Shown here piece after piece: positions 21,636 through 58,338 of a stretch of 64,000 nt of DNA. Numbering within the stretch: position 1 is the first letter of the stretch; each line of letters opens with the position of its first letter. Made by a program: the position numbers and the translations under genes. This stretch comes from Eledone cirrhosa (Eukaryota). The DNA is taken from positions 110,298,001 through 110,362,000 of the forward strand of contig OZ024741.1 in NCBI GenBank assembly GCA_964016885.1, given 5' to 3'. The notes beneath the pieces were generated by a model. It was not told the origin of the DNA, made no database searches, and saw only the letters and a program-made list of their open reading frames with translations.

Positions 21636-22081
21636 TTTGACATAATCATCGAATATTGTTTAACAACTTAATACTTATATATGTATATATATTTATTATT
21701 ACATATATATATATTTGTGTGTTTATATATATATATATGTATGTATGTATGTATATGTGTATATATACATATATACTTATTGCGTATACATGTATGTATA
21801 TATATGTATGTATATGCGTATACATGTATGTAGATGTGTATATTATTATTATTATTATTATTATTATTGAATGCCATGGTTGACGGAGGCTCGGCTCTGT
21901 AAGGTATAGTAATTTTTAACCGTTAAAACAATTGTAAATTGTTTAAAACTTGAACCAAATTGTTGATAAAGACACCCTCCTCCTCGTGAGAGGGGTCTTT
22001 CTGTCCGTTATTTGGCCCTTCGGGGTTAAATAGCCAGTTATTGGGGTTTTGTACCCAAAATTTCATTTTAAACAAAAAAAC

Positions 22082-24182
22082 ATGGCTACCAAAAAAAAAA
22101 AAATTTCACACGTCACTCCCACTCATTCCGTCTTCTTCTTCCTCAATCATCACTACAGGAGAGAGAAGATTGTCTCTCTCCCTCCCTTCTTTAAATGTGT
22201 CTCTCTCCCTACCTTCTCTTTCGCAAGCGACGAAAGAAAAGAAAAGTCTCGTGCAAAGCGTGCAAGGTTTCTCCACGACGACGACGACAGCGACGAAACA
22301 GGTGTGCGGGAAATACGAAAACCCAGTTCATTCGTCTGACGTCAGGAATAATAGCAGTAGCAGCCGTAATAACAACAGCAACAGTGACAATGAAAACAAC
22401 AGTAGCAGCCGCAACAGCATCACCAGCAGCATAAACAACAACAGCATTAGCAGCAGCAACACCAACAACAACCACAGCAACAGCGGCGGAGGCAGTAGTC
22501 GTAGTACCTGCAGCAACAACAAAAGTACCAGCAGCTCTGACGACAACAACAACAGCAGAGAAAAACCAATCTCATTTGCAGGTATTGCGAAAAACCTGGA
22601 AACAATCCTCATAACAAATGAGGAATTAGAGGAAGCGAAGAAGATGGTGACAAAGAACGGACACCGAGCAATCTGCAAGGCAGCGAAAAATTTTTTCGAA
22701 ACCCAAGAGCACTGTACGGTCACGTACCGTACAGTAAGTACAAAATCCCGTAGGGTGGAAAGAGCCACAGAGGCCCAAATACAAAAAGCCTTGGGGTCTG
22801 TGTGGCAGAGGAAAACGCACATCACCCGAGGCAAAAAATACGCCACCGTAGACGTACTTTTTGCCACACCCCAGGAGGCAAAGGCCCAATCAGTAGTGAC
22901 CCTAAGGAGCGAGGAAATGGTGTTGGTGCCCTCCTACTGCGGGCAAAAAATTGTGAGGGTCAAACTGACCCACGTCCCCCCCGGAATGACCCCTTCTTGG
23001 CTGGCCGCGTCTGTCCTCGTCGGAATCGAGGACAAAACAACTGTACTGCAAGTACAGAAAAAAGTAAGAGAAGATTGGGTCGGCTCCTCCATTGAGATGC
23101 TAATCCAAACCAACCAGGAGTGCATCGAAGCTATCCCGGATGTGATAGACTTCGATAACGGCACTCAACTGCCCATAAGTGTTGAGGGCAAACGCCCGAA
23201 ATGCTTTCGCTGTGGATCGAAGACTCACCTCAGGGCCTTCTGCAACGAGAAGACCCTGAGAAAGGAGAAAACCCCCCTCCTCCCGAATCCGGTTCCACGG
23301 CTACCAGCAACAGGACAAGCGGCAACCAGGAACGATAGGTCCGTGGCACCCATACCCACTCCACGGAAATCAAAGACAGCAGCAGCAGTGGAAATATTAA
23401 CAACAACAACAGCAATACCAAATGCAGCTGCAACAGAGACTCCAGTGCAAACATCACCAACAACAACAAGTGAAAGAGTGGAGCTGGTACCCCTCCCCGA
23501 CCTTACAGAATCAGACATGGAGTGTGAGGTGGGAGAGGGATGGCAAAAGGTCTCAAGAAGGCACAAACGCAGAAGCAGCGCATCGTCGCCTTTGAAAAGG
23601 GAGGAAAGAAATGAGAAAAGGGTAAAGTCTACTGCAAAGAGACCCACAGCAGCAACACCACCAACACCATCACCACCCACACCAGCACCACCATCACCAC
23701 CGGCGACAACCCCACCGCCAACAACACCTTCAACACCACCACCACAAGCACCAACATCGCAAACACAACAACAAAACACACACACCCAGCAACAACGACA
23801 AGAAAATAGCAGAACCACACCCCACCCCCAGAAAAACAAATGCACGGCAATAAACACACACAACAAGAAACTAATGACTTACATAATTGAACACACAGAC
23901 ATTTCACAACAGGACTACATAATACCAGCACCAATCAAAACGCCAACTAACATAAGACTGCTAAAAATAGCACAGAAACAATACACAAACATTAAAACGA
24001 AATTCCCCAACGCAGTTGGTGATTTCAGGGACCTAGGAGGAACCATTAATCGAAGAGTATATTCAGACATTCTCTTAGAAGAGCCGACGACCAGCCGAAG
24101 GGACGATTCAACGGTCCCTTCACCAGACGATCAAGTGAAAAGGGATGTAAAAACCATCCCTCCTCTACCAAAAATACGGTAA
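22082..24182 (+). pseudogene. ORF1 copy 1, frameshifted just after the ATG
   Basis: An A13 run replaces AAAAAGAAA (+4 nt) after ATGGCTACC; the rest is intact, including CFRCGSKTHLRAFC. Could be a homopolymer sequencing error. Confidence 0.7.
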
Positions 24183-24217
24183 GTGGTCTTTCCCATCTTT
24201 TCCACTCTATTTTAAAC

Positions 24218-27200
24218 ATGACCTCACTCAGAATAGGCAGCATAAATGCGCGTGGCTTGGGGTCGTCATGGAAGCAGGGTCACCTGCTCAACGACCTCAG
24301 GTCACTAAACATAGATGTAGTGGCCATCAGCGAGACCAGAATCTCCGAAGCACGGGCCTTCGCACCGATCTTCGGCGGCTACGATGTGTACGCATCTCCC
24401 AGCCGTCCTGGATCGGGTGGAGGAGTTGCTGTGCTTTTTCGGAGAGGTTTGGATCTCGCCATACGGGCCATCTTCCTGGACCCAGAGGGTAAGCTGGTGG
24501 TGCTGGACGTGACCAGCGGAGACGGGCAAGCTTTCAGGCTAGTGGCCGTCTATGCCCCGACAGGAGCAGGGCGGCCTGATTTCTTCCGGCGTCTGGAGAC
24601 CTTTCTTGGAACGTCGCGCTCTTTAGTGTTAGTGGGCGACTGGAACGGGATCTTAGATGCACGCTGGGACTGTGTGGGATTAGCGGATAGGGGTGGAGGG
24701 TGCAAGAGCCTCACCAACCTGCTCAGGCGTTTTGAACTGTCTGACAGGTACCGATTGGATTTCCCGAATGTGCCAATGTGGACTTGGACAAACCGCATAG
24801 GGTCATCCAGATCATATCTAGATAGAGTATTTTGTAGGGAAATAGATAGGTCTAGCATAGGCTGTCCACAATTCAAGATAGTCAGCTACACGGACCACAA
24901 ATTCGTGATCTGTGTGCTTGACTTAGATAGGCTTCATAGACGAGGACCCGGCTACTGGAAGCTAAACGCGTCCTTACCAGCGCGCAAGGCCTACAGAGAC
25001 CGGATTAGCGAACTAGTTAAGCGGGCGTTGACGGGGGCCATCGTCAACAACAAGTGGTGGTTTGCTCTGAAAAGAGCGATTAGAATAGAATCGATTAGGT
25101 TTAGTAAGGCTTTAGCAATAGAGAAAAATAGAGCAGAGGGAGAACTAGTTAGAAAATTAGACGAGGCGCTTAGCAAAGGCATTGCGACCGACGTGCTTGC
25201 GGCGAAATTGGCCCTTGACCAATTCTTCAATGCAAAGCACGAAGGCTGCGTTGTCAGAGCTAGGGTGCGTGCTCTCAGACACGAGGGGACGAAAGCCGTT
25301 CAATGGGCCCGAGTGGCGGAGGCGCGTCGTGGCAACAAAGCCACGATCCGGTCTTTGGTGGACCACGACGGGCGCATGCTACTCGATCCCGGGCAAATGT
25401 GTGAAGCTTTTCAGCGACACTTCGCTCAGCTGTTCGGGGGCAGCGGGGGGCCGGGTAGAGGGATGGACTTTAGTGTCTACCTCGACGGACTGCCGCGGCT
25501 CTCGGCCACTGAGGCGAAGTGTTGCGAAAAGCCGATAACAGCCGCTGAAGTAAGGGAGGCAATGACTGGCTGCACAAGGGGTAAATCGCCTGGTTTGGAT
25601 GGTCTGCCCTATGAACTTTACGTACAGATGCCAGACTTGTTCGGAGGCCTCTTGGCGGACGTCTACTGCAACTGGCAACAGAACGGGAGAATTCCCAGTT
25701 CTGTGAGCCGAGGAGCGGTGGCACTGCTGAGAAAGGATCCGAACAAGGGGGATAACATAGACAATTTCCGGCCCATAACTCTGCTAAACACAGAGTTTAA
25801 GATTTTGGCCAAGGTGCTAGCAAAGAGGTTGGCGCTTGTCGTTGGTGGTCTGGTGGGAGAGGCGCAGACATGCGCCATTCCCGACAGATCCATCCACGAC
25901 AACCTCCACCTCATGCGATACATCGTAGAGAGGGTAGCTAGGGAACCTGGCACGGGTGGGTCCTTGATCAATTTAGATCAGTCGAAAGCTTTCGATAGGG
26001 TCGACCATCGTTACCTAGCGGCAGTCCTGAGGGCGGCTGGCTTTGGGCCCGTCTTCAGAGGCTGGATCGCTGCCATGCACAGCGACATCTGCTCTGTGGT
26101 GAGAGTGAACGGTCACCTGTCGGAACCGTTCAACATCATGCGCTCGGTCCGCCAAGGATGTCCCCTCTCGTCCCTCTTGTACGTATTGACTCTCGAGCCA
26201 TTACTGCACAAACTGGAGACGTTGAGGGGAGTCCCGCGCGAACTAGGATGCGGAAGATCCGTGTCAGCATATGCGGACGATGTCACCGTAGTGGTGTCGA
26301 ACGCCAAACACATCGAGGCGATCGGCACTACACTAAGAGAATACGAAGCGGTGACAGGAGCAATGATCAACCAGGAAAAGTCAGTGGGCCTGCAGCTCGG
26401 CACCTGGAGAGGCAGGTCCATGCCGTCCAACAGCGTCGTCGGGCGCTGGACGGACGGACCGGTTAAATTGCTAGGGGTCTGGTTCGGTCCGGACCTCCAG
26501 ACGGACAAAAACTGGGACGAGGTGACGAGCAGGGTGGCTTCTCTCACCCAGAAATGGGCGGAGAGGAAGCTATCCCTGAAAGGTCGAGCGGAGGTGGCTA
26601 ACGCGTACATCGCGTCTGTCATCTGCTACCGCCTAACCGTCGTACCTTGTCCTAAGCCTCGCCTGACTGCGCTGGAGCGTTTGCTCTTTCGCTTTTTGTG
26701 GAAGGGACGTGCTCCGATGGTCAGGCGGTCCATCTGTTGTCAACACCCGCTACGTGGAGGGCTGGGCATGCCGTGGCTGATGATGCGCAGGCACGCGCTC
26801 AGGCTACGACATCTCCACCTCTTCCTCGACGGTGATCAGGTGTGGTCGCCGTTTGCTAGACGCGTTTTTCCCCAGCTCGTTTCCTTGACGGAGCTGCAGT
26901 CCTGGGTCAAGCGAAGACCGAGAGGGAGCGCCTGGAGACTGGAATGTCTTCAGGCGCTCACAGCCCTCGACCAATCGGGCAATGTGATCGGTGGAAACTC
27001 CACCTCGGCGTTCTATAGAGGATTAGTGGAGGGGAAGAGCGACGACGTACTTGGGGAAACTCTAGGCGTCGACGAAAATCAACTAGCCAATCTCTTCGGA
27101 AGAACCTTCGGGCCAGGGCCTATGGACAACTTCCAGAAATCTCTGGCCTGGCAGTGCTACCGAGGAGCCTTGCCAGTTCGGGATAAACTCTACAGGCATG

Positions 27201-27637
27201 GAGGTGCCGTCAGCCGGGCATGTCCGAGATGCGCGCAGGGCGACGAAACCGTCCTGCACGCACTCGTCCAGTGTCCGAAAATTGCTGACTTGTGGGTTTA
27301 TGTCGAACACCTGCTGTCGCGTTTAGGACGGATCCAGCTATCATCTGGGTCCATCGTGAGGATTGCCCCGCCCTCCTCCTTTAGCCGGGAAGGGCAGGCA
27401 GTTTTTATCTGTCTGGTGGCCATGGCGAAAGAGATAGTATGGTGGACACGTTTGAAAGGGCTGAAGACGAGCACTTACCTCTTCGGTGATGCTCTGATTG
27501 ACTTTTTCAAATTTCATTTGAAAAGGAAAATCAGAGTAGAGAAGGAAGTGCTCTCTTCCCAGCATTTTGTTGAAAGATGGGTGAGAGAAGCAAGAATGGC
27601 CCGAGTGAATGGGCCGACTCTGAGTATATATCTGTAA
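24218..27637 (+). CDS. ORF2: APE endonuclease, reverse transcriptase, zinc finger (1139 aa)
   Basis: SINARG, ISETR, YAP, GDWN, LDR, TDH; PGLDG, FRPITLLN, LDQSKAFD, RQGCPLS, YADD; CPRC-x8-H-x4-C. Confidence 0.97.
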   Translation: MTSLRIGSINARGLGSSWKQGHLLNDLRSLNIDVVAISETRISEARAFAPIFGGYDVYASPSRPGSGGGVAVLFRRGLDLAIRAIFLDPEGKLVVLDVTSGDGQAFRLVAVYAPTGAGRPDFFRRLETFLGTSRSLVLVGDWNGILDARWDCVGLADRGGGCKSLTNLLRRFELSDRYRLDFPNVPMWTWTNRIGSSRSYLDRVFCREIDRSSIGCPQFKIVSYTDHKFVICVLDLDRLHRRGPGYWKLNASLPARKAYRDRISELVKRALTGAIVNNKWWFALKRAIRIESIRFSKALAIEKNRAEGELVRKLDEALSKGIATDVLAAKLALDQFFNAKHEGCVVRARVRALRHEGTKAVQWARVAEARRGNKATIRSLVDHDGRMLLDPGQMCEAFQRHFAQLFGGSGGPGRGMDFSVYLDGLPRLSATEAKCCEKPITAAEVREAMTGCTRGKSPGLDGLPYELYVQMPDLFGGLLADVYCNWQQNGRIPSSVSRGAVALLRKDPNKGDNIDNFRPITLLNTEFKILAKVLAKRLALVVGGLVGEAQTCAIPDRSIHDNLHLMRYIVERVAREPGTGGSLINLDQSKAFDRVDHRYLAAVLRAAGFGPVFRGWIAAMHSDICSVVRVNGHLSEPFNIMRSVRQGCPLSSLLYVLTLEPLLHKLETLRGVPRELGCGRSVSAYADDVTVVVSNAKHIEAIGTTLREYEAVTGAMINQEKSVGLQLGTWRGRSMPSNSVVGRWTDGPVKLLGVWFGPDLQTDKNWDEVTSRVASLTQKWAERKLSLKGRAEVANAYIASVICYRLTVVPCPKPRLTALERLLFRFLWKGRAPMVRRSICCQHPLRGGLGMPWLMMRRHALRLRHLHLFLDGDQVWSPFARRVFPQLVSLTELQSWVKRRPRGSAWRLECLQALTALDQSGNVIGGNSTSAFYRGLVEGKSDDVLGETLGVDENQLANLFGRTFGPGPMDNFQKSLAWQCYRGALPVRDKLYRHGGAVSRACPRCAQGDETVLHALVQCPKIADLWVYVEHLLSRLGRIQLSSGSIVRIAPPSSFSREGQAVFICLVAMAKEIVWWTRLKGLKTSTYLFGDALIDFFKFHLKRKIRVEKEVLSSQHFVERWVREARMARVNGPTLSIYL

Positions 27638-27898
27638 ACTAAAGGTGGAAAACTGGGAGAGGGCACTTGCCTTGGTGGTCAGGGTCATTGTGGCTTTTTA
27701 CTGGGCTTTCTCCACAAATGTCCCTCCGAAGTCTCCCCCCTATTGGGGAATTTTTCATTGTTATTTTCATTGTTATTTTTGTTACATCCTCTATTTTTGT
27801 TTTTTTTACACGCAGAAATGCCCATTTGTACCGTCCTGCATTGTCCTGCACTGTCCTTAATGTCTACTTTATGTAAACCCTTGTGGTTAATAAAGAAA

Positions 27899-27948
<50 letters not shown>

Positions 27949-28161
27949 GAATGCCATGGTTGACGGAGGCTCGGCTCTGTAAGGTATAGTAATTTTTAAC
28001 CGTTAAAACAATTGTAAATTGTTTAAAACTTGAACCAAATTGTTGATAAAGACACCCTCCTCCTCGTGAGAGGGGTCTTTCTGTCCGTTATTTGGCCCTT
28101 CGGGGTTAAATAACCAGTTATTGGGGTTTTGTACCCAAAATTTCATTTTAAACAAAAAAAC

Positions 28162-30258
28162 ATGGCTACCAAAAAGAAATTTCATACGTCACTCCCACTC
28201 ATTCCGTCTTCTTCTTCCTCAATCATCACTACAGCAGAGAGAAGATTGTCTCTCTCCCTCCCTTCTTTAAATGTGTCTCTCTCCCTCCCTTCTCTTTCGC
28301 AAGCGACGAAAGAAAAGAAAAGTCTCGTGCAAAGCGTGCAAGGTTTCTCCACGACGACGACGACAGCGACGAAACAGGTGTGCGGGAAATACGAAAACCC
28401 AGTTCATTCGTCTGACGTCAGGAATAATAGCAGTAGCAGCCGTAATAACAACAGCAACAGTGACAATGAAAACAACAGTAGCAGCCGCAACAGCATCACC
28501 AGCAGCATAAACAACAACAGCATTAGCAGCAGCAACACCAACAACAACCACAGCAACAGCGGCGGAGGCAGTAGTCGTAGTACCTGCAGCAACAACAAAA
28601 GTACCAGCAGCTCTGACGACAACAACAACAGCAGAGAAAAACCAATCTCATTTGCAGGTATTGCGAAAAACCTGGAAACAATCCTCATAACAAATGAGGA
28701 ATTAGAGGAAGCGAAGAAGATGGTGACAAAGAACGGACACCGAGCAATCTGCAAGGCAGCGAAAAATTTTTTCGAAACCCAAGAGCACTGTACGGTCACG
28801 TACCGTACAGTAAGTACAAAATCCCGTAGGGTGGAAAGAGCCACAGAGGCCCAAATACAAAAAGCCTTGGGGTCTGTGTGGCAGAGGAAAACGCACATCA
28901 CCCGAGGCAAAAAATACGCCACCGTAGACGTACTTTTTGCCACACCCCAGGAGGCAAAGGCCCAATCAGTAGTGACCCTAAGGAGCGAGGAAATGGTGTT
29001 GGTGCCCTCCTACTGCGGGCAAAAAATTGTGAGGGTCAAACTGACCCACGTCCCCCCCGGAATGACCCCTTCTTGGCTGGCCGCGTCTGTCCTCGTCGGA
29101 ATCGAGGACAAAACAACTGTACTGCAAGTACAGAAAAAAGTAAGAGAAGATTGGGTCGGCTCCTCCATTGAGATGCTAATCCAAACCAACCAGGAGTGCA
29201 TCGAAGCTATCCCGGATGTGATAGACTTCGATAACGGCACTCAACTGCCCATAAGTGTTGAGGGCAAACGCCCGAAATGCTTTCGCTGTGGATCGAAGAC
29301 TCACCTCAGGGCCTTCTGCAACGAGAAGACCATGAGAAAGGAGAAAACCCCCCTCCTCCCGAATCCGGTTCCACGGCTACCAGCAACAGGACAAGCGGCA
29401 ACCAGGAACGATAGGTCCGTGGCACCCATACCCACTCCACGGAAATCAAAGACAGCAGCAGCAGTGGAAATATTAACAACAACAACAGCAATACCAAATG
29501 CAGCTGCAACAGAGACTCCAGTGCAAACATCACCAACAACAACAAGTGAAAGAGTGGAGCTGGTACCCCTCCCCGACCTTACAGAATCAGACATGGAGTG
29601 TGAGGTGGGAGAGGGATGGCAAAAGGTCTCAAGAAGGCACAAACGCAGAAGCAGCGCATCGTCGCCTTTGAAAAGGGAGGAAAGAAATGAGAAAAGGGTA
29701 AAGTCTACTGCAAAGAGACCCACAGCAGCAACACCACCAACACCATCACCACCCACACCAGCACCACCATCACCACCGGCGACAACCCCACCGCCAACAA
29801 CACCTTCAACACCACCACCACAAGCACCAACATCGCAAACACAACAACAAAACACACACACCCAGCAACAACGACAAGAAAATAGCAGAACCACACCCCA
29901 CTCCCAGAAAAACAAATGCACGGCAATAAACACACACAACAAGAAACTAATGACTTACATAATTGAACACACAGACATTTCACAACAGGACTACATAATA
30001 CCAGCACCAATCAAAACGCCAACTAACATAAGACTGCTAAAAATAGCACAGAAACAATACACAAACATTAAAACGAAATTCCCCAACGCAGTTGGTGATT
30101 TCAGGGACCTAGGAGGAACCATTAATCGAAGAGTATATTCAGACATTCTCTTAGAAGAGCCGACGACCAGCCGAAGGGACGATTCAACGGTCCCTTCACC
30201 AGACGATCAAGTGAAAAGGGATGTAAAAACCATCCCTCCTCTACCAAAAGTACGGTAA
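28162..30258 (+). CDS. ORF1 nucleic-acid-binding protein with CCHC zinc knuckle (698 aa from the ATG)
   Basis: First ATG (MATKKK); S/N-rich N-terminus, C-x2-C-x4-H-x4-C, P/T-rich linker. Confidence 0.9.
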   Translation: MATKKKFHTSLPLIPSSSSSIITTAERRLSLSLPSLNVSLSLPSLSQATKEKKSLVQSVQGFSTTTTTATKQVCGKYENPVHSSDVRNNSSSSRNNNSNSDNENNSSSRNSITSSINNNSISSSNTNNNHSNSGGGSSRSTCSNNKSTSSSDDNNNSREKPISFAGIAKNLETILITNEELEEAKKMVTKNGHRAICKAAKNFFETQEHCTVTYRTVSTKSRRVERATEAQIQKALGSVWQRKTHITRGKKYATVDVLFATPQEAKAQSVVTLRSEEMVLVPSYCGQKIVRVKLTHVPPGMTPSWLAASVLVGIEDKTTVLQVQKKVREDWVGSSIEMLIQTNQECIEAIPDVIDFDNGTQLPISVEGKRPKCFRCGSKTHLRAFCNEKTMRKEKTPLLPNPVPRLPATGQAATRNDRSVAPIPTPRKSKTAAAVEILTTTTAIPNAAATETPVQTSPTTTSERVELVPLPDLTESDMECEVGEGWQKVSRRHKRRSSASSPLKREERNEKRVKSTAKRPTAATPPTPSPPTPAPPSPPATTPPPTTPSTPPPQAPTSQTQQQNTHTQQQRQENSRTTPHSQKNKCTAINTHNKKLMTYIIEHTDISQQDYIIPAPIKTPTNIRLLKIAQKQYTNIKTKFPNAVGDFRDLGGTINRRVYSDILLEEPTTSRRDDSTVPSPDDQVKRDVKTIPPLPKVR

Positions 30259-30293
30259 GTGGTCTTTCCCATCTTTTCCACTCTATTTTAAAC

Positions 30294-33200: not shown

Positions 33201-33713
33201 GACAACTTCCAGAAATCTCTGGCCTGGCAGTGCTACCGAGGAGCCTTGCCAGTTCGGGATAAACTCTACAGGCATGGAGGTGCCGTCAGCCGGGCATGTC
33301 CGAGATGCGCGCAGGGCGACGAAACCGTCCTGCACGCACTCGTCCAGTGTCCGAAAATTGCTGACTTGTGGGTTTATGTCGAACACCTGCTGTCGCGTTT
33401 AGGACGGATCCAGCTATCATCTGAGTCTATCGTGAGGATTGCCCCGCCCTCCTCCTTTAGCCGGGAAGGGCAGGCAGTTTTTATCTGTCTGGTGGCCATG
33501 GCGAAAGAGATAGTATGGTGGACACGTTTGAAAGGGCTGAAGACGAGCACTTACCTCTTCGGTGATGCTCTGATTGACTTTTTCAAATTTCATTTGAAAA
33601 GGAAAATCAGAGTAGAGAAGGAAGTGCTCTCTTCCCAGCATTTTGTTGAAAGATGGGTGAGAGAAGCAAGAATGGCCCGAGTGAATGGGCCGACTCTGAG
33701 TATATATCTGTAA
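30294..33713 (+). CDS. ORF2 APE-RT-ZnF
   Basis: Intact 1139 aa, same motifs as copy 1. Confidence 0.97.
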   Translation: MTSLRIGSINARGLGSSWKQGHLLNDLRSLNIDVVAISETRISEARAFAPIFGGYDVYASPSRPGSGGGVAVLFRRGLDLAIRAIFLDPEGKLVVLDVTSGDGQAFRLVAVYAPTGAGRPDFFRRLETFLGTSRSLVLVGDWNGILDARWDCVGLADRGGGCKSLTNLLRRFELSDRYRLDFPNVPMWTWTNRIGSSRSYLDRVFCREIDRSSIGCPQFKIVSYTDHKFVTCVLDLDRLHRRGPGYWKLNASLPARKAYRDRISELVKRALTGAIVNNKWWFALKRAIRIESIRFSKALAIEKNRAEGELVRKLDEALSKGIATDVLAAKLALDQFFNAKHEGCVVRARVRALRHEGTKAVQWARVAEARRGNKATIRSLVDHDGRMLLDPGQMCEAFQRHFAQLFGGSGGPGRGMDFSVYLDGLPRLSATEAKCCEKPITAAEVREAMTGCTRGKSPGLDGLPYELYVQMPDLFGGLLADVYCNWQQNGRIPSSVSRGAVALLRKDPNKGDNIDNFRPITLLNTEFKILAKVLAKRLALVVGGLVGEAQTCAIPDRSIHDNLHLMRYIVERVAREPGTGGSLINLDQSKAFDRVDHRYLAAVLRAAGFGPVFRGWIAAMHSDICSVVRVNGHLSEPFNIMRSVRQGCPLSSLLYVLTLEPLLHKLETLRGVPRELGCGRSVSAYADDVTVVVSNAKHIEAIGTTLREYEAVTGAMINQEKSVGLQLGTWRGRSMPSNSVVGRWTDGPVKLLGVWFGPDLQTDKNWDEVTSRVASLTQKWAERKLSLKGRAEVANAYIASVICYRLTVVPCPKPRLTALERLLFRFLWKGRAPMVRRSICCQHPLRGGLGMPWLMMRRHALRLRHLHLFLDGDQVWSPFARRVFPQLVSLTELQSWVKRRPRGSAWRLECLQALTALDQSGNVIGGNSTSAFYRGLVEGKSDDVLGETLGVDENQLANLFGRTFGPGPMDNFQKSLAWQCYRGALPVRDKLYRHGGAVSRACPRCAQGDETVLHALVQCPKIADLWVYVEHLLSRLGRIQLSSESIVRIAPPSSFSREGQAVFICLVAMAKEIVWWTRLKGLKTSTYLFGDALIDFFKFHLKRKIRVEKEVLSSQHFVERWVREARMARVNGPTLSIYL

Positions 33714-33974: not shown

Positions 33975-34036
<62 letters not shown>

Positions 34037-36346: not shown

Positions 36347-36381
36347 GTGGTCTTTCCCATCTTTTCCACTCTATTTTAAAC

Positions 36382-40062: not shown

Positions 40063-40121
<59 letters not shown>

Positions 40122-46146: not shown

Positions 46147-46187
<41 letters not shown>

Positions 46188-48491: not shown

Positions 48492-48526
48492 GTGGTCTTT
48501 CCCATCTTTTCCACTCTATTTTAAAC

Positions 48527-51500
48527 ATGACCTCACTCAGAATAGGCAGCATAAATGCGCGTGGCTTGGGGTCGTCATGGAAGCAGGGTCACCTGCTCAA
48601 CGACCTCAGGTCACTAAACATAGATGTAGTGGCCATCAGCGAGACCAGAATCTCCGAAGCACGGGCCTTCGCACCGATCTTCGGCGGCTACGATGTGTAC
48701 GCATCTCCCAGCCGTCCTGGATCCGGTGGAGGAGTTGCTGTGCTTTTTCGGAGAGGTTTGGATCTCGCCATACGGGCCATCTTCCTGGACCCAGAGGGTA
48801 AGCTGGTGGTGCTGGACGTGACCAGCGGAGACGGGCAAGCTTTCAGGCTAGTGGCCGTCTATGCCCCGACAGGAGCAGGGCGGCCTGATTTCTTCCGGCG
48901 TCTGGAGACCTTTCTTGGAACGTCGCGCTCTTTAGTGTTAGTGGGCGACTGGAACGGGATCTCAGATGCACGCTGGGACTGTGTGGGATTAGCGGATAGG
49001 GGTGGAGGGTGCAAGAGCCTCACCAACCTGCTCAGGCGTTTTGAACTGTCTGACAGGTACCGATTGGATTTCCCGAATGTGCCAATGTGGACTTGGACAA
49101 ACCGCATAGGGTCATCCAGATCATATCTAGATAGAGTATTTTGTAGGGAAATAGATAGGTCTAGCATAGGCTGTCCACAATTCAAGATAGTCAGCTACAC
49201 GGACCACAAATTCGTGATCTGTGTGCTTGACTTAGATAGGCTTCATAGACGAGGACCCGGCTACTGGAAGCTAAACGCGTCCTTACCAGCGCGCAAGGCC
49301 TACAGAGACCGGATTAGCGAACTAGTTAAGCGGGCGTTGACGGGGGCCATCGTCAACAACAAGTGGTGGTTTGCTCTGAAAAGAGCGATTAGAATAGAAT
49401 CGATTAGGTTTAGTAAGGCTTTAGCAATAGAGAAAAATAGAGCAGAGGGAGAACTAGTTAGAAAATTAGACGAGGCGCTTAGCAAAGGCATTGCGACCGA
49501 CGTGCTTGCGGCTAAATTGGCCCTTGACCAATTCTTCAATGCAAAGCACGAAGGCTGCGTTGTCAGAGCTAGGGTGCGTGCTCTCAGACACGAGGGGACG
49601 AAAGCCGTTCAATGGGCCCGAGTGGCGGAGGCGCGTCGTGGCAACAAAGCCACGATCCGGTCTTTGGTGGACCACGACGGGCGCATGCTACTCGATCCCG
49701 GGCAAATGTGTGAAGCTTTTCAGCGACACTTCGCTCAGCTGTTCGGGGGCAGCGGGGGGCCGGGTAGAGGGATGGACTTTAGTGTCTACCTCGACGGACT
49801 GCCGCGGCTCTCGGCCACTGAGGCGAAGTGTTGCGAAAAGCCGATAACAGCCGCTGAAGTAAGGGAGGCAATGACTGGCTGCACAAGGGGTAAATCGCCT
49901 GGTTTGGATGGTCTGCCCTATGAACTTTACGTACAGATGCCAGACTTGTTCGGAGGCCTCTTGGCGGACGTCTACTGCAACTGGCAACAGAACGGGAGAA
50001 TTCCCAGTTCTGTGAGCCGAGGAGCGGTGGCACTGCTGAGAAAGGATCCGAACAAGGGGGATAACATAGACAATTTCCGGCCCATAACTCTGCTAAACAC
50101 AGAGTTTAAGATTTTGGCCAAGGTGCTAGCAAAGAGGTTGGCGCTTGTCGTTGGTGGTCTGGTGGGAGAGGCGCAGACATGCGCCATTCCCGACAGATCC
50201 ATCCACGACAACCTCCACCTCATGCGATACATCGTAGAGAGGGTAGCTAGGGAACCTGGCACGGGTGGGTCCTTGATCAATTTAGATCAGTCGAAAGCTT
50301 TCGATAGGGTCGACCATCGTTACCTAGCGGCAGTCCTGAGGGCGGCTGGCTTTGGGCCCGTCTTCAGAGGCTGGATCGCTGCCATGCACAGCGACATCTG
50401 CTCTGTGGTGAGAGTGAACGGTCACCTGTCGGAACCGTTCAACATCATGCGCTCGGTCCGCCAAGGATGTCCCCTCTCGTCCCTCTTGTACGTATTGACT
50501 CTCGAGCCATTACTGCACAAACTGGAGACGTTGAGGGGAGTCCCGCGCGAACTAGGATGCGGAAGATCCGTGTCAGCATATGCGGACGATGTCACCGTAG
50601 TGGTGTCGAACGCCAAACACATCGAGGCGATCGGCACTACACTAAGAGAATACGAAGCGGTGACAGGAGCAATGATCAACCAGGAAAAGTCAGTGGGCCT
50701 GCAGCTCGGCACCTGGAGAGGCAGGTCCATGCCGTCCAACAGCGTCGTCGGGCGCTGGACGGACGGACCGGTTAAATTGCTAGGGGTCTGGTTCGGTCCG
50801 GACCTCCAGACGGACAAAAACTGGGACGAGGTGACGAGCAGGGTGGCTTCTCTCACCCAGAAATGGGCGGAGAGGAAGCTATCCCTGAAAGGTCGAGCGG
50901 AGGTGGCTAACGCGTACATCGCGTCTGTCATCTGCTACCGCCTAACCGTCGTACCTTGTCCTAAGCCTCGCCTGACTGCGCTGGAGCGTTTGCTCTTTCG
51001 CTTTTTGTGGAAGGGACGTGCTCCGATGGTCAGGCGGTCCATCTGTTGTCAACACCCGCTACGTGGAGGGCTGGGCATGCCGTGGCTGATGATGCGCAGG
51101 CACGCGCTCAGGCTACGACATCTCCACCTCTTCCTCGACGGTGATCAGGTGTGGTCGCCGTTTGCTAGACGCGTTTTTCCCCAGCTCGTTTCCTTGACGG
51201 AGCTGCAGTCCTGGGTCAAGCGAAGACCGAGAGGGAGCGCCTGGAGACTGGAATGTCTTCAGGCGCTCACAGCCCTCGACCAATCGGGCAATGTGATCGG
51301 TGGAAACTCCACCTCGGCGTTCTATAGAGGATTAGTGGAGGGGAAGAGCGACGACGTACTTGGGGAAACTCTAGGCGTCGACGAAAATCAACTAGCCAAT
51401 CTCTTCGGAAGAACCTTCGGGCCAGGGCCTATGGACAACTTCCAGAAATCTCTGGCCTGGCAGTGCTACCGAGGAGCCTTGCCAGTTCGGGATAAACTCT

Positions 51501-51946
51501 ACAGGCATGGAGGTGCCGTCAGCCGGGCATGTCCGAGATGCGCGCAGGGCGACGAAACCGTCCTGCACGCACTCGTCCAGTGTCCGAAAATTGCTGACTT
51601 GTGGGTTTATGTCGAACACCTGCTGTCGCGTTTAGGACGGATCCAGCTATCATCTGAGTCTATCGTGAGGATTGCCCCGCCCTCCTCCTTTAGCCGGGAA
51701 GGGCAGGCAGTTTTTATCTGTCTGGTGGCCATGGCGAAAGAGATAGTATGGTGGACACGTTTGAAAGGGCTGAAGACGAGCACTTACCTCTTCGGTGATG
51801 CTCTGATTGACTTTTTCAAATTTCATTTGAAAAGGAAAATCAGAGTAGAGAAGGAAGTGCTCTCTTCCCAGCATTTTGTTGAAAGATGGGTGAGAGAAGC
51901 AAGAATGGCCCGAGTGAATGGGCCGACTCTGAGTATATATCTGTAA
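48527..51946 (+). CDS. ORF2 APE-RT-ZnF
   Basis: Intact 1139 aa. Confidence 0.97.
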   Translation: MTSLRIGSINARGLGSSWKQGHLLNDLRSLNIDVVAISETRISEARAFAPIFGGYDVYASPSRPGSGGGVAVLFRRGLDLAIRAIFLDPEGKLVVLDVTSGDGQAFRLVAVYAPTGAGRPDFFRRLETFLGTSRSLVLVGDWNGISDARWDCVGLADRGGGCKSLTNLLRRFELSDRYRLDFPNVPMWTWTNRIGSSRSYLDRVFCREIDRSSIGCPQFKIVSYTDHKFVICVLDLDRLHRRGPGYWKLNASLPARKAYRDRISELVKRALTGAIVNNKWWFALKRAIRIESIRFSKALAIEKNRAEGELVRKLDEALSKGIATDVLAAKLALDQFFNAKHEGCVVRARVRALRHEGTKAVQWARVAEARRGNKATIRSLVDHDGRMLLDPGQMCEAFQRHFAQLFGGSGGPGRGMDFSVYLDGLPRLSATEAKCCEKPITAAEVREAMTGCTRGKSPGLDGLPYELYVQMPDLFGGLLADVYCNWQQNGRIPSSVSRGAVALLRKDPNKGDNIDNFRPITLLNTEFKILAKVLAKRLALVVGGLVGEAQTCAIPDRSIHDNLHLMRYIVERVAREPGTGGSLINLDQSKAFDRVDHRYLAAVLRAAGFGPVFRGWIAAMHSDICSVVRVNGHLSEPFNIMRSVRQGCPLSSLLYVLTLEPLLHKLETLRGVPRELGCGRSVSAYADDVTVVVSNAKHIEAIGTTLREYEAVTGAMINQEKSVGLQLGTWRGRSMPSNSVVGRWTDGPVKLLGVWFGPDLQTDKNWDEVTSRVASLTQKWAERKLSLKGRAEVANAYIASVICYRLTVVPCPKPRLTALERLLFRFLWKGRAPMVRRSICCQHPLRGGLGMPWLMMRRHALRLRHLHLFLDGDQVWSPFARRVFPQLVSLTELQSWVKRRPRGSAWRLECLQALTALDQSGNVIGGNSTSAFYRGLVEGKSDDVLGETLGVDENQLANLFGRTFGPGPMDNFQKSLAWQCYRGALPVRDKLYRHGGAVSRACPRCAQGDETVLHALVQCPKIADLWVYVEHLLSRLGRIQLSSESIVRIAPPSSFSREGQAVFICLVAMAKEIVWWTRLKGLKTSTYLFGDALIDFFKFHLKRKIRVEKEVLSSQHFVERWVREARMARVNGPTLSIYL

Positions 51947-52207
51947 ACTAAAGGTGGAAAACTGGGAGAGGGCACTTGCCTTGGTGGTCAGGGTCATTGT
52001 GGCTTTTTACTGGGCTTTCTCCACAAATGTTCCTCCGAAGTCTCCCCCCTATTGGGGAATTTTTCATTGTTATTTTCATTGTTATTTTTGTTACATCCTC
52101 TATTTTTGTTTTTTTTACACGCAGAAATGCCCATTTGTACCGTCCTGCATTGTCCTGCACTGTCCTTAATGTCTACTTTATGTAAACCCTTGTGGTTAAT
52201 AAAGAAA

Positions 52208-52257
<50 letters not shown>

Positions 52258-52470
52258 GAATGCCATGGTTGACGGAGGCTCGGCTCTGTAAGGTATAGTA
52301 ATTTTTAACCGTTAAAACAATTGTAAATTGTTTAAAACTTGAACCAAATTGTTGATAAAGACACCCTCCTCCTCGTGAGAGGGGTCTTTCTGTCCGTTAT
52401 TTGGCCCTTCGGGGTTAAATAACCAGTTATTGGGGTTTTGTACCCAAAATTTCATTTTAAACAAAAAAAC

Positions 52471-54567
52471 ATGGCTACCAAAAAGAAATTTCATACGTCA
52501 CTCCCACTCATTCCGTCTTCTTCTTCCTCAATCATCACTACAGCAGAGAGAAGATTGTCTCTCTCCCTCCCTTCTTTAAATGTGTCTCTCTCCCTCCCTT
52601 CTCTTTCGCAAGCGACGAAAGAAAAGAAAAGTCTCGTGCAAAGCGTGCAAGGTTTCTCCACGACGACGACGACAGCGACGAAACAGGTGTGCGGGAAATA
52701 CGAAAACCCAGTTCATTCGTCTGACGTCAGGAATAATAGCAGTAGCAGCCGTAATAACAACAGCAACAGTGACAATGAAAACAACAGTAGCAGCCGCAAC
52801 AGCATCACCAGCAGCATAAACAACAACAGCATTAGCAGCAGCAACACCAACAACAACCACAGCAACAGCGGCGGAGGCAGTAGTCGTAGTACCTGCAGCA
52901 ACAACAAAAGTACCAGCAGCTCTGACGACAACAACAACAGCAGAGAAAAACCAATCTCATTTGCAGGTATTGCGAAAAACCTGGAAACAATCCTCATAAC
53001 AAATGAGGAATTAGAGGAAGCGAAGAAGATGGTGACAAAGAACGGACACCGAGCAATCTGCAAGGCAGCGAAAAATTTTTTCGAAACCCAAGAGCACTGT
53101 ACGGTCACGTACCGTACAGTAAGTACAAAATCCCGTAGGGTGGAAAGAGCCACAGAGGCCCAAATACAAAAAGCCTTGGGGTCTGTGTGGCAGAGGAAAA
53201 CGCACATCACCCGAGGCAAAAAATACGCCACCGTAGACGTACTTTTTGCCACACCCCAGGAGGCAAAGGCCCAATCAGTAGTGACCCTAAGGAGCGAGGA
53301 AATGGTGTTGGTGCCCTCCTACTGCGGGCAAAAAATTGTGAGGGTCAAACTGACCCACGTCCCCCCCGGAATGACCCCTTCTTGGCTGGCCGCGTCTGTC
53401 CTCGTCGGAATCGAGGACAAAACAACTGTACTGCAAGTACAGAAAAAAGTAAGAGAAGATTGGGTCGGCTCCTCCATTGAGATGCTAATCCAAACCAACC
53501 AGGAGTGCATCGAAGCTATCCCGGATGTGATAGACTTCGATAACGGCACTCAACTGCCCATAAGTGTTGAGGGCAAACGCCCGAAATGCTTTCGCTGTGG
53601 ATCGAAGACTCACCTCAGGGCCTTCTGCAACGAGAAGACCCTGAGAAAGGAGAAAACCCCCCTCCTCCCGAATCCGGTTCCACGGCTACCAGCAACAGGA
53701 CAAGCGGCAACCAGGAACGATAGGTCCGTGGCACCCATACCCACTCCACGGAAATCAAAGACAGCAGCAGCAGTGGAAATATTAACAACAACAACAGCAA
53801 TACCAAATGCAGCTGCAACAGAGACTCCAGTGCAAACATCACCAACAACAACAAGTGAAAGAGTGGAGCTGGTACCCCTCCCCGACCTTACAGAATCAGA
53901 CATGGAGTGTGAGGTGGGAGAGGGATGGCAAAAGGTCTCAAGAAGGCACAAACGCAGAAGCAGCGCATCGTCGCCTTTGAAAAGGGAGGAAAGAAATGAG
54001 AAAAGGGTAAAGTCTACTGCAAAGAGACCCACAGCAGCAACACCACCAACACCATCACCACCCACACCAGCACCACCATCACCACCGGCGACAACCCCAC
54101 CGCCAACAACACCTTCAACACCACCACCACAAGCACCAACATCGCAAACACAACAACAAAACACACACACCCAGCAACAACGACAAGAAAATAGCAGAAC
54201 CACACCCCACCCCCAGAAAAACAAATGCACGGCAATAAACACACACAACAAGAAACTAATGACTTACATAATTGAACACACAGACATTTCACAACAGGAC
54301 TACATAATACCAGCACCAATCAAAACGCCAACTAACATAAGACTGCTAAAAATAGCACAGAAACAATACACAAACATTAAAACGAAATTCCCCAACGCAG
54401 TTGGTGATTTCAGGGACCTAGGAGGAACCATTAATCGAAGAGTATATTCAGACATTCTCTTAGAAGAGCCGACGACCAGCCGAAGGGACGATTCAACGGT
54501 CCCTTCACCAGACGATCAAGTGAAAAGGGATGTAAAAACCATCCCTCCTCTACCAAAAATACGGTAA
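52471..54567 (+). CDS. ORF1 (CCHC knuckle)
   Basis: Intact from the ATG. Confidence 0.9.
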   Translation: MATKKKFHTSLPLIPSSSSSIITTAERRLSLSLPSLNVSLSLPSLSQATKEKKSLVQSVQGFSTTTTTATKQVCGKYENPVHSSDVRNNSSSSRNNNSNSDNENNSSSRNSITSSINNNSISSSNTNNNHSNSGGGSSRSTCSNNKSTSSSDDNNNSREKPISFAGIAKNLETILITNEELEEAKKMVTKNGHRAICKAAKNFFETQEHCTVTYRTVSTKSRRVERATEAQIQKALGSVWQRKTHITRGKKYATVDVLFATPQEAKAQSVVTLRSEEMVLVPSYCGQKIVRVKLTHVPPGMTPSWLAASVLVGIEDKTTVLQVQKKVREDWVGSSIEMLIQTNQECIEAIPDVIDFDNGTQLPISVEGKRPKCFRCGSKTHLRAFCNEKTLRKEKTPLLPNPVPRLPATGQAATRNDRSVAPIPTPRKSKTAAAVEILTTTTAIPNAAATETPVQTSPTTTSERVELVPLPDLTESDMECEVGEGWQKVSRRHKRRSSASSPLKREERNEKRVKSTAKRPTAATPPTPSPPTPAPPSPPATTPPPTTPSTPPPQAPTSQTQQQNTHTQQQRQENSRTTPHPQKNKCTAINTHNKKLMTYIIEHTDISQQDYIIPAPIKTPTNIRLLKIAQKQYTNIKTKFPNAVGDFRDLGGTINRRVYSDILLEEPTTSRRDDSTVPSPDDQVKRDVKTIPPLPKIR

Positions 54568-54602
54568 GTGGTCTTTCCCATCTTTTCCACTCTATTTTAA
54601 AC

Positions 54603-57600
54603 ATGACCTCACTCAGAATAGGCAGCATAAATGCGCGTGGCTTGGGGTCGTCATGGAAGCAGGGTCACCTGCTCAACGACCTCAGGTCACTAAACATAGA
54701 TGTAGTGGCCATCAGCGAGACCAGAATCTCCGAAGCACGGGCCTTCGCACCGATCTTCGGCGGCTACGATGTGTACGCATCTCCCAGCCGTCCTGGATCG
54801 GGTGGAGGAGTTGCTGTGCTTTTTCGGAGAGGTTTGGATCTCGCCATACGGGCCATCTTCCTGGACCCAGAGGGTAAGCTGGTGGTGCTGGACGTGACCA
54901 GCGGAGACGGGCAAGCTTTCAGGCTAGTGGCCGTCTATGCCCCGACAGGAGCAGGGCGGCCTGATTTCTTCCGGCGTCTGGAGACCTTTCTTGGAACGTC
55001 GCGCTCTTTAGTGTTAGTGGGCGACTGGAACGGGATCTTAGATGCACGCTGGGACTGTGTGGGATTAGCGGATAGGGGTGGAGGGTGCAAGAGCCTCACC
55101 AACCTGCTCAGGCGTTTTGAACTGTCTGACAGGTACCGATTGGATTTCCCGAATGTGCCAATGTGGACTTGGACAAACCGCATAGGGTCATCCAGATCAT
55201 ATCTAGATAGAGTATTTTGTAGGGAAATAGATAGGTCTAGCATAGGCTGTCCACAATTCAAGATAGTCAGCTACACGGACCACAAATTCGTGATCTGTGT
55301 GCTTGACTTAGATAGGCTTCATAGACGAGGACCCGGCTACTGGAAGCTAAACGCGTCCTTACCAGCGCGCAAGGCCTACAGAGACCGGATTAGCGAACTA
55401 GTTAAGCGGGCGTTGACGGGGGCCATCGTCAACAACAAGTGGTGGTTTGCTCTGAAAAGAGCGATTAGAATAGAATCGATTAGGTTTAGTAAGGCTTTAG
55501 CAATAGAGAAAAATAGAGCAGAGGGAGAACTAGTTAGAAAATTAGACGAGGCGCTTAGCAAAGGCATTGCGACCGACGTGCTTGCGGCGAAATTGGCCCT
55601 TGACCAATTCTTCAATGCAAAGCACGAAGGCTGCGTTGTCAGAGCTAGGGTGCGTGCTCTCAGACACGAGGGGACGAAAGCCGTTCAATGGGCCCGAGTG
55701 GCGGAGGCGCGTCGTGGCAACAAAGCCACGATCCGGTCTTTGGTGGACCACGACGGGCGCATGCTACTCGATCCCGGGCAAATGTGTGAAGCTTTTCAGC
55801 GACACTTCGCTCAGCTGTTCGGGGGCAGCGGGGGGCCGGGTAGAGGGATGGACTTTAGTGTCTACCTCGACGGACTGCCGCGGCTCTCGGCCACTGAGGC
55901 GAAGTGTTGCGAAAAGCCGATAACAGCCGCTGAAGTAAGGGAGGCAATGACTGGCTGCACAAGGGGTAAATCGCCTGGTTTGGATGGTCTGCCCTATGAA
56001 CTTTACGTACAGATGCCAGACTTGTTCGGAGGCCTCTTGGCGGACGTCTACTGCAACTGGCAACAGAACGGGAGAATTCCCAGTTCTGTGAGCCGAGGAG
56101 CGGTGGCACTGCTGAGAAAGGATCCGAACAAGGGGGATAACATAGACAATTTCCGGCCCATAACTCTGCTAAACACAGAGTTTAAGATTTTGGCCAAGGT
56201 GCTAGCAAAGAGGTTGGCGCTTGTCGTTGGTGGTCTGGTGGGAGAGGCGCAGACATGCGCCATTCCCGACAGATCCATCCACGACAACCTCCACCTCATG
56301 CGATACATCGTAGAGAGGGTAGCTAGGGAACCTGGCACGGGTGGGTCCTTGATCAATTTAGATCAGTCGAAAGCTTTCGATAGGGTCGACCATCGTTACC
56401 TAGCGGCAGTCCTGAGGGCGGCTGGCTTTGGGCCCGTCTTCAGAGGCTGGATCGCTGCCATGCACAGCGACATCTGCTCTGTGGTGAGAGTGAACGGTCA
56501 CCTGTCGGAACCGTTCAACATCATGCGCTCGGTCCGCCAAGGATGTCCCCTCTCGTCCCTCTTGTACGTATTGACTCTCGAGCCATTACTGCACAAACTG
56601 GAGACGTTGAGGGGAGTCCCGCGCGAACTAGGATGCGGAAGATCCGTGTCAGCATATGCGGACGATGTCACCGTAGTGGTGTCGAACGCCAAACACATCG
56701 AGGCGATCGGCACTACACTAAGAGAATACGAAGCGGTGACAGGAGCAATGATCAACCAGGAAAAGTCAGTGGGCCTGCAGCTCGGCACCTGGAGAGGCAG
56801 GTCCATGCCGTCCAACAGCGTCGTCGGGCGCTGGACGGACGGACCGGTTAAATTGCTAGGGGTCTGGTTCGGTCCGGACCTCCAGACGGACAAAAACTGG
56901 GACGAGGTGACGAGCAGGGTGGCTTCTCTCACCCAGAAATGGGCGGAGAGGAAGCTATCCCTGAAAGGTCGAGCGGAGGTGGCTAACGCGTACATCGCGT
57001 CTGTCATCTGCTACCGCCTAACCGTCGTACCTTGTCCTAAGCCTCGCCTGACTGCGCTGGAGCGTTTGCTCTTTCGCTTTTTGTGGAAGGGACGTGCTCC
57101 GATGGTCAGGCGGTCCATCTGTTGTCAACACCCGCTACGTGGAGGGCTGGGCATGCCGTGGCTGATGATGCGCAGGCACGCGCTCAGGCTACGACATCTC
57201 CACCTCTTCCTCGACGGTGATCAGGTGTGGTCGCCGTTTGCTAGACGCGTTTTTCCCCAGCTCGTTTCCTTGACGGAGCTGCAGTCCTGGGTCAAGCGAA
57301 GACCGAGAGGGAGCGCCTGGAGACTGGAATGTCTTCAGGCGCTCACAGCCCTCGACCAATCGGGCAATGTGATCGGTGGAAACTCCACCTCGGCGTTCTA
57401 TAGAGGATTAGTGGAGGGGAAGAGCGACGACGTACTTGGGGAAACTCTAGGCGTCGACGAAAATCAACTAGCCAATCTCTTCGGAAGAACTTTCGGGCCA
57501 GGGCCTATGGACAACTTCCAGAAATCTCTGGCCTGGCAGTGCTACCGAGGAGCCTTGCCAGTTCGGGATAAACTCTACAGGCATGGAGGTGCCGTCAGCC

Positions 57601-58022
57601 GGGCATGTCCGAGATGCGCGCAGGGCGACGAAACCGTCCTGCACGCACTCGTCCAGTGTCCGAAAATTGCTGACTTGTGGGTTTATGTCGAACACCTGCT
57701 GTCGCGTTTAGGACGGATCCAGTTATCATCTGAGTCTATCGTGAGGATTGCCCCGCCCTCCTCCTTTAGCCGGGAAGGGCAGGCAGTTTTTATCTGTCTG
57801 GTGGCCATGGCGAAAGAGATAGTATGGTGGACACGTTTGAAAGGGCTGAAGACGAGCACTTACCTCTTCGGTGATGCTCTGATTGACTTTTTCAAATTTC
57901 ATTTGAAAAGGAAAATCAGAGTAGAGAAGGAAGTGCTCTCTTCCCAGCATTTTGTTGAAAGATGGGTGAGAGAAGCAAGAATGGCCCGAGTGAATGGGCC
58001 GACTCTGAGTATATATCTGTAA
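54603..58022 (+). CDS. ORF2 APE-RT-ZnF
   Basis: Intact 1139 aa. Confidence 0.97.
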   Translation: MTSLRIGSINARGLGSSWKQGHLLNDLRSLNIDVVAISETRISEARAFAPIFGGYDVYASPSRPGSGGGVAVLFRRGLDLAIRAIFLDPEGKLVVLDVTSGDGQAFRLVAVYAPTGAGRPDFFRRLETFLGTSRSLVLVGDWNGILDARWDCVGLADRGGGCKSLTNLLRRFELSDRYRLDFPNVPMWTWTNRIGSSRSYLDRVFCREIDRSSIGCPQFKIVSYTDHKFVICVLDLDRLHRRGPGYWKLNASLPARKAYRDRISELVKRALTGAIVNNKWWFALKRAIRIESIRFSKALAIEKNRAEGELVRKLDEALSKGIATDVLAAKLALDQFFNAKHEGCVVRARVRALRHEGTKAVQWARVAEARRGNKATIRSLVDHDGRMLLDPGQMCEAFQRHFAQLFGGSGGPGRGMDFSVYLDGLPRLSATEAKCCEKPITAAEVREAMTGCTRGKSPGLDGLPYELYVQMPDLFGGLLADVYCNWQQNGRIPSSVSRGAVALLRKDPNKGDNIDNFRPITLLNTEFKILAKVLAKRLALVVGGLVGEAQTCAIPDRSIHDNLHLMRYIVERVAREPGTGGSLINLDQSKAFDRVDHRYLAAVLRAAGFGPVFRGWIAAMHSDICSVVRVNGHLSEPFNIMRSVRQGCPLSSLLYVLTLEPLLHKLETLRGVPRELGCGRSVSAYADDVTVVVSNAKHIEAIGTTLREYEAVTGAMINQEKSVGLQLGTWRGRSMPSNSVVGRWTDGPVKLLGVWFGPDLQTDKNWDEVTSRVASLTQKWAERKLSLKGRAEVANAYIASVICYRLTVVPCPKPRLTALERLLFRFLWKGRAPMVRRSICCQHPLRGGLGMPWLMMRRHALRLRHLHLFLDGDQVWSPFARRVFPQLVSLTELQSWVKRRPRGSAWRLECLQALTALDQSGNVIGGNSTSAFYRGLVEGKSDDVLGETLGVDENQLANLFGRTFGPGPMDNFQKSLAWQCYRGALPVRDKLYRHGGAVSRACPRCAQGDETVLHALVQCPKIADLWVYVEHLLSRLGRIQLSSESIVRIAPPSSFSREGQAVFICLVAMAKEIVWWTRLKGLKTSTYLFGDALIDFFKFHLKRKIRVEKEVLSSQHFVERWVREARMARVNGPTLSIYL

Positions 58023-58282
58023 ACTAAAGGTGGAAAACTGGGAGAGGGCACTTGCCTTGGTGGTCAGGGTCATTGTGGCTTTTTACTGGGCTTTCTCCAC
58101 AAATGTCTCTCCGAAGTCTCCCCCCTATTGGGGAATTTTTCATTGTTATTTTCATTGTTATTTTTGTTACATCCTCTGTTTTTGTTTTTTTACACGCAGA
58201 AATGCCCATTCGTACCGTCCTGCATTGTCCTGCACTGTCCTTAATGTCTACTTTATGTAAACCCTTGTGGTTAATAAAGAAA

Positions 58283-58338
<56 letters not shown>

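Follow-up and report, generated by a model that had tools for sequence, protein, structure and literature searches.

The question raised by this locus is how six copies of one retrotransposon came to stand head to tail in a single microsatellite, with only further microsatellite units between them. The window, a stretch of 64,000 nucleotides (nt) from Eledone cirrhosa (assembly GCA_964016885.1, contig OZ024741.1, positions 110,298,001 to 110,362,000 of the forward strand), contains six units of the same long interspersed nuclear element (LINE) family on the (+) strand at 21842..58338, each 6022-6032 base pairs (bp) long. Along the array, the pure (ATT)n runs have 9, 16, 20, 19, 13, 16 and 18 units; GAATGCC follows six of them, AATAAAGAAATC precedes six of them, and there is no poly(A). 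The units differ pairwise by 5-20 substitutions, and the second open reading frame (ORF2), of 1139 amino acids (aa), is intact in all six. A preliminary description based on the sequence had reported the one-strand array of six copies, the ATT counts, the identical junctions, the lack of poly(A) and the six intact ORF2s, all of which were reproduced in the window. With a probability of roughly 0.7, we propose that these six young L1/Tx1-type copies arose from separate insertions into (ATT)n, and that at least units 2 and 4 captured the front end of the resident element downstream of them.

Polar chimerism and the origins of the units

Many tandem units of this family are chimeras whose 5' part matches that of the downstream neighbour. 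A total of 112 copies were aligned and 51 adjacent pairs compared, of which two near-identical pairs were set aside, leaving 49; copies from different loci served as control pairs (n=6019). No substitution was found in at least the first 500 nt in 16 of the 49 adjacent pairs versus 63 of the 6019 controls, whereas the corresponding 3' tracts occurred near background (6/49 and 387/6019, respectively). Among pairs with at most 30 differences, at least 2500 nt were shared at the 5' end by 7 of 20 adjacent pairs and by 1 of 787 controls. In the discovery set, 12 of 27 pairs shared a 5' tract, the two near-identical pairs included. Many contigs carry exact head-to-tail junctions; the genome gave 27 with 9-unit spacers and 17 with 14-unit ones, and one of each kind stood outside the blind sets. 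Pairs in which a unit was truncated, deleted or of the sister subfamily described below were excluded before counting (8 of 18 nine-unit and 2 of 16 fourteen-unit junctions). In the blind 14-unit set, tracts were shared at the 5' end by 5 and at the 3' end by 0 of 14 pairs, and the prediction set beforehand held; the two blind sets pooled gave 6/24 (p=2e-7 versus controls). The spacers were longer in the 5'-sharing pairs (p=0.014).

Within the window, the first 3551 nt of units 2 and 3 are identical, and T1954 is found only in these two among the 112 copies. Units 4 and 5 have no substitution in their first 2542 nt, with T1107, T1461 and C2782 private to both; units 1 and 2 show no 5' sharing. 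Elsewhere, L125 and L126 form a two-unit array with a unique left flank and a shared front; therefore, unequal exchange cannot have built that array. Counted per 500 nt, the differences to unit 6 run 36, 35, 20, 25, 22, 10... in L116, 36, 35, 17, 4, 4, 2... in L117 and 36, 8, 4, 4, 0, 0... in L118. In pairs that differ clearly in age, the unit on the upstream side combines the 5' part of its neighbour with a younger 3' part (L118, L117, L154, L203 and L218).

For every unit of the window, the nearest copy over the 3' 2.4 kb lies at another locus. The 3' part of unit 2 is nearest to the dispersed copies L227 and L143, that of unit 3 has one difference from the dispersed copy L075 on another contig, and that of unit 4 comes from a source other than unit 5. 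To judge from its sequence, unit 1 is a plain independent insertion, being closest to the dispersed copies L104 and L102 on contig C1 (7-8 differences, versus 12-20 to its array mates). The six 3' parts do not form the single clade expected of a satellite expanded from one unit (approximately unbiased (AU) test, p=0.0017, on the 49 of the 112 copies with at most 30 substitutions relative to unit 2); given the low resolution of the tree and recombination within the family, this test shows only the absence of a single local origin. To this extent, the result bears out the earlier suggestion that the locus grew by repeated insertion.

Several observations weigh against separate insertion with capture, or limit its reach. 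The blind 9-unit junctions gave shared 5' tracts in only 1 of 10 pairs, and the explanation by spacer length arose after this result and was then tested once. The shared tract of units 4 and 5 contains a 6-bp CAC indel and a difference at position 2543. Units 3 and 4, like units 5 and 6, are identical for 1106 nt, but this stretch is matched also by L158 elsewhere, and among the 137 control pairs with no more than 15 differences, 34 attain a 500-nt tract, so that these two junctions speak neither for nor against capture. Concerning direction, 10 of 14 pairs had the younger 3' part upstream, with one tie and three reversed, units 4 and 5 among the reversed; the neighbour-based donor test agreed in 6 of 14 pairs, and the left-flank test was not significant (p=0.23). 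Moreover, pairs within one array are non-independent, and all chimerism counts come from one assembly in which no intermediates were seen.

Spacers, the proposed route and its rivals

The spacers are duplicated target, with the duplication reaching right up to the downstream element, because irregular spacers repeat the left flank without added ATT; pure ATT runs cannot separate a tail from a duplication, but irregular runs can. A 42-nt irregular spacer beginning GTTATTATTATCGTTGTT occurs three times in the trimer L118-L117-L116, once in the unique left flank and once in each junction; at the ends of L118 and L117 its copy, starting GTT, directly follows GAAATC. The same duplication was found in L121/L071 (34 nt), L130/L129 (59 nt) and L136-L135-L134 (39 and 24 nt), the last having a constant right part, GTT(ATT)5, and a variable left part. 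At the irregular junctions, the copied target directly adjoins the element end, with no ATT added; a single ATT follows the 3' ends of L065, L070 and L081, and none those of L117 and L118. The length of the target duplication is unreadable in pure runs, and the irregular flanks of L104 bound it at no more than 5 units. Regrowth of a target by duplication is already published: passages in McGurk and Barbash (2018, PMC5932611) describe how site preference and target duplication renew the target, so that dimers form and can expand by unequal exchange.

By analogy with L1 biology, the (ATT)n cleavage specificity may be ascribed to the ORF2 endonuclease, which would nick the AAT strand, often near the start of a run, where the reverse transcriptase (RT) would copy the RNA; the addition of an ATT tail would not be needed. 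In the plain route, a short duplication inside the run would leave ATT on both sides and the target would survive, as in unit 1. The polar mosaics point to a second, capture route, in which the nick would fall in the run just before a resident and the end of the complementary DNA (cDNA) would anneal to the matching place in that resident. Repair and fill-in would then duplicate the stretch from nick to annealing point, that is, the spacer and 0.5-3.6 kb of the 5' part of the resident. The product would be a new full-length unit upstream, its 5' part borrowed and its 3' part supplied by an unrelated source copy. As the upstream run would stay whole, the step could be repeated, the array would grow at its 5' side and long runs would be used more; unequal exchange would add near-identical units in some arrays. 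For the window, we infer that unit 6 was likely the first resident, preceded by a run of about 20 units, that units 5 to 2 were added upstream with spacers of 16, 13, 19 and 20 units, and that unit 1 came last, as a plain insertion splitting the run into 9 and 16.

The main rival holds that the arrays are plain double insertions with short target duplications, which acquired their common 5' tracts later by gene conversion starting in the ATT spacer. It would suit the 33 of 49 adjacent pairs without a long shared 5' tract, which look like plain insertions, the patchy tract of units 4 and 5, and the duplicated spacers of L121, L130 and L136, whose initial ATT units are possible seeds for conversion. 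We nevertheless consider it unlikely, because conversion should be symmetric but sharing on the 3' side lies close to background; in addition, the copied spacer of L118-L116 begins with GTT at the element end and offers no ATT homology on its left, and in the pairs that differ clearly in age it is the upstream copy that is the chimera. The preliminary description had instead proposed a tail that regenerates its own target; in this version, the element would write its own (ATT)n tail, in the manner of telomerase, and use it as the next target. The right-hand runs of solo copies are indeed longer than the left-hand ones (median 14 versus 7 units, n=16), and small RT slippage would be invisible in pure runs. 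However, the longer right-hand runs are explained by a nick near the run start, the irregular junctions hold nothing beyond the copied upstream target, and, besides the five copies ending with one ATT or none, 97 3' ends in the genome have no following A. A tail that regenerates its own target is therefore very improbable.

Growth of the array from one or two insertions via unequal crossing-over or local duplication could draw on the mere 5 differences between units 2 and 3, and on L143, L144 and L145 (C7:20.655-20.673 Mb), three units of a five-unit array that are 1-2 substitutions apart and have equal 9-unit spacers; the near-identity of these three reflects either local duplication or an assembly effect. 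For the window, this explanation appears improbable: besides the foreign affinities of every 3' part and the rejected single clade, all five alleles by which units 2 and 3 differ occur in other copies, the spacer lengths are unequal, and there is no complementary sharing of 3' tracts with the neighbour upstream. Finally, no read or contig spans the array, as would suit an assembly expansion or a mixture of haplotypes. This we find scarcely credible, since the units are not identical and carry private as well as dispersed-type alleles, and similar junctions stand on many contigs; raw reads of another sample under the same species label cross an ATT spacer at a depth of 5, perhaps from one molecule, in support of the junction type only. 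Separate insertions, some with capture of the resident's front end, thus remain our preferred explanation.

The element, its family and the ATT target

The element has a 698-aa ORF1, a 35-nt gap and a 1139-aa ORF2, with no long terminal repeats (LTRs). In ORF2, the Pfam domains PF03372 (APE endonuclease), PF00078 (RT) and PF13966 (zinc-binding, C-terminal) were identified. Its best match among solved structures was human L1 ORF2p (PDB 9k6g, E=1.5e-52), with R2 at 1e-21, and the alignment to human L1 ORF2p is collinear over residues 5-854, with the endonuclease and RT motifs kept. On these sequence features, the element is placed in the L1 clade (L1/Tx1) of non-LTR retrotransposons. It differs from human L1 in lacking a poly(A) tail and in its ORF1, which is of the CCHC type and not Transposase_22. 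ORF1 contains the CCHC motif CFRCGSKTHLRAFC and gave no Pfam match; Atlas neighbours scoring 0.88-0.93 that carry zf-CCHC and ZCCHC3 RNA-binding domains are a lead, and an ORF1 of the RRM plus CCHC type is consistent with Tx1 according to the part of PMC5203782 that treats it. The ORF2 relatives found were all unnamed or generic (best 79% identity, next about 40-44%) and included no named Tx1 family, so the element is called Tx1-like, its place in the Tx1 subgroup being putative. The RNA fold of the 3' end is unremarkable (z=-0.8).

Genome-wide, the first 30 nt of the LINE have 1570 exact matches and the last 30 nt have 3430, dispersed and on both strands; reversed control patterns had 0 matches, and chance is therefore excluded. 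Directly after (ATT)3 stood 1641 5' ends, versus 3 without a preceding T, and 3264 3' ends were followed by (ATT)3, versus the 97 mentioned above. All 30 sampled 5' flanks end in 5-27 ATT units of the same phase. In the portion of PMC4494074 concerned, a microsatellite-specific family is one with more than 20% of its flanks in one target, a share that the present family exceeds. These counts support the suggestion of a young (ATT)n-specific LINE of the APE-type, L1/Tx1-like kind, and the tabulation of flanks proposed in its support came out accordingly, with nearly all copies in (ATT)n at constant phase. Among 84 young full-length copies examined, ORF2 was intact in 73 and both ORFs in 53. Of the 30 sampled 5' ends, 10 stand behind a 3' end of the family (6 if the GAAATC end alone is counted). 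As this sample is clustered, no excess of tandems is claimed over the comparison of 3264 3' ends among at least 44,308 ATT runs. Structures of this kind are common in the LINE family, and the hexamer is one of the long ones.

A sister subfamily (L068, L079, L085, L087 and L100; also L086, L153, L200 and L223) has the same ORF2 and 3' end, at 93-97%, and a different 5'UTR-ORF1 of about 2.1 kb (UTR, untranslated region), which starts GGCGACCTACGTAG after the ATT run. The junction lies at about position 2262 of unit 2 and amounts to an ORF1 swap. Mixed tandems also occur, the start of the sister subfamily following 6 of 60 3' ends.

Microsatellite-targeting LINEs of the Tx1 clade are already known, and those treated in the relevant part of PMC4494074 are Kibi in (TC)n, Koshi in (TTC)n and crocodilian Tx1 in (TTCC)n/(TTTC)n; tandem SINEU-3 copies sandwiching a target duplication are described there as well. 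With these LINEs the present family has in common the two ORFs, the APE endonuclease and RT, and insertion into simple repeats, but (ATT)n is not among the targets listed there, and the present family has more than 1500 full-length 5' ends and forms polar chimeric tandems. For L1-Tx1 in Octopus vulgaris, 13 recently active families are reported, with no targets given in the passage concerned (PMC13282606). Tandem transposable elements formed by double insertion, R1 tandems included, are described in the sections of McGurk and Barbash (2018, PMC5932611) on which we draw; there too, site preference and target duplication keep the target and make a new one, and most LINE junctions are tail-to-internal (5'-truncated). 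In the present family, by contrast, many junctions are head-to-tail between full-length copies, and the duplication would reach kilobases into the resident.

HeT-A and TART form LINE arrays in head-to-tail arrangement, to which copies are added at one side. The window array resembles them in its orientation and in its proposed one-sided growth, but it is interstitial (110.3 Mb within a 416-Mb contig), putatively endonuclease-targeted and one of many, with no sign of an end-capping role, and the copies of the family are dispersed on both strands. The telomeric arrays themselves are mentioned in PMC5932611. With this location and with head-to-tail junctions on many contigs, the idea of a telomere-like or special source locus could not be upheld. 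Gilbert et al. reportedly observed in 2005 the pairing of L1 cDNA and chimeric L1s formed with endogenous copies. Pairing of human L1 cDNA with nearby homologous DNA, resembling synthesis-dependent strand annealing, is cited in passages of bioRxiv 10.1101/2024.08.27.596794, where 22 somatic events had non-L1 templates of less than 250 bp. This pairing resembles the capture route in that the growing cDNA detaches from its RNA and anneals to homologous DNA close by, with a chimera and a duplication as the outcome. The difference is that here the template would be the element's own neighbour, with tracts of 0.5-3.6 kb, and the events are fixed in an assembled genome, at about a third of the sampled junctions.

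In the literature covered, with Repbase, subscription papers and supplements outside the scope, neither an (ATT)n Tx1 family nor LINE tandems with polar chimerism were found described. The family may have been catalogued before and, taken alone, is one more microsatellite-seeking Tx1-type LINE; the chimerism weighs more. What is new here is the polar chimerism of tandem neighbours, and it is the chimeric growth route that deserves testing. Newly inserted LINEs usually lack their 5' ends, and LINE lineages have repeatedly swapped promoters and ORF1, by a mechanism that is usually only inferred. Tentatively, and at not quite even odds, capture of the cDNA by an adjacent resident may be a regular second route of integration, used at about a third of tandem junctions and more at long ATT runs, which would complete truncated cDNAs with a promoter, extend arrays 5'-ward and shuffle 5'UTR-ORF1 and ORF2 modules between subfamilies. 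If so, capture would provide a physical route for the ORF1 swap of the sister subfamily and perhaps one for the replacement of 5' modules across LINE evolution. Site specificity places new cDNAs beside homologous copies, with the outcome preserved at dozens of natural junctions; therefore, the 5' joining of LINEs is open to counting in a genome and to tests with marked residents. As a caution, the trees and ages of such elements would be mosaic. The family also offers a candidate simple-repeat-specific endonuclease for study.

Features of the window and further repeats

The features of the array are collected in Table 1. ORF1 is open in five of the six units (698 aa in units 2, 3, 4 and 6; 696 aa in unit 5). 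In unit 1, it is frameshifted in an A-run near 22091, with 4 extra A relative to unit 2; this may be a homopolymer slip, because three dispersed copies of the same 5' type carry 3 extra A.

Table 1. Units and (ATT)n runs of the array, in window coordinates
Feature	Position	Strand	Remarks
Left (ATT)9 run	21842..21868	+	target DNA before unit 1; length typical of plain insertion
Unit 1, full length	21869..27900	+	residual ORF1 22644-24182 (frameshifted); ORF2 24218-27637 intact
(ATT)16 spacer	27901..27948	+	
Unit 2	27949..33976	+	ORF1 28162-30258 (698 aa, CCHC knuckle); ORF2 30294-33713 (1139 aa)
(ATT)20 spacer	33977..34036	+	
Unit 3	34037..40064	+	ORF1 34250-36346; ORF2 36382-39801
(ATT)19 spacer	40065..40121	+	
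Unit 4	40122..46148	+	ORF1 40335-42431; ORF2 42467-45886
(ATT)13 spacer	46149..46187	+	
Unit 5	46188..52209	+	ORF1 46401-48491 (696 aa); ORF2 48527-51946
(ATT)16 spacer	52210..52257	+	
Unit 6	52258..58284	+	ORF1 52471-54567; ORF2 54603-58022
Right (ATT)18 run	58285..58338	+	rest of target microsatellite

Some 200 bp to the left of the array lies a near-perfect palindrome (20955-21644; 345-nt arms, 98% complementary, without spacer), parts of which are high-copy in public runs. At 3492-7179, terminal inverted repeats of 344 nt (98%) flank 3.0 kb that include a 293-aa ORF without a Pfam match (4727-5608, minus strand); this element looks like a DNA transposon derivative. At 61214-61870, a 218-aa ORF that weakly matches RT (E=8e-6) is a fragment of another retroelement.

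A short repeat family with the motif GATAAAATAAAGTACCAGTAATG is present in the window at 16290-16358, 17127-17264, 18379-18516 and 20120-20188, and also in the upstream flanks of L009, L017, L021 and L027; copies of it ending in ...TAGAAAC or ...TAGAAATC plus ATT stand directly before 4 of 30 LINE 5' ends. In the L108-L110 region (C1:55.42-55.46 Mb), a repeat of about 900 bp ending in ...TTTCAGATC plus (ATT)8 precedes two consecutive LINE copies, and other repeat families recur to the right of ATT runs. The copy L070, short and truncated, lies in an (ACT)n tract with its one ATT at the 3' end, a case of relaxed target use, and in L159 a (CCGT)n microsatellite is expanded inside ORF1 near unit position 1104.

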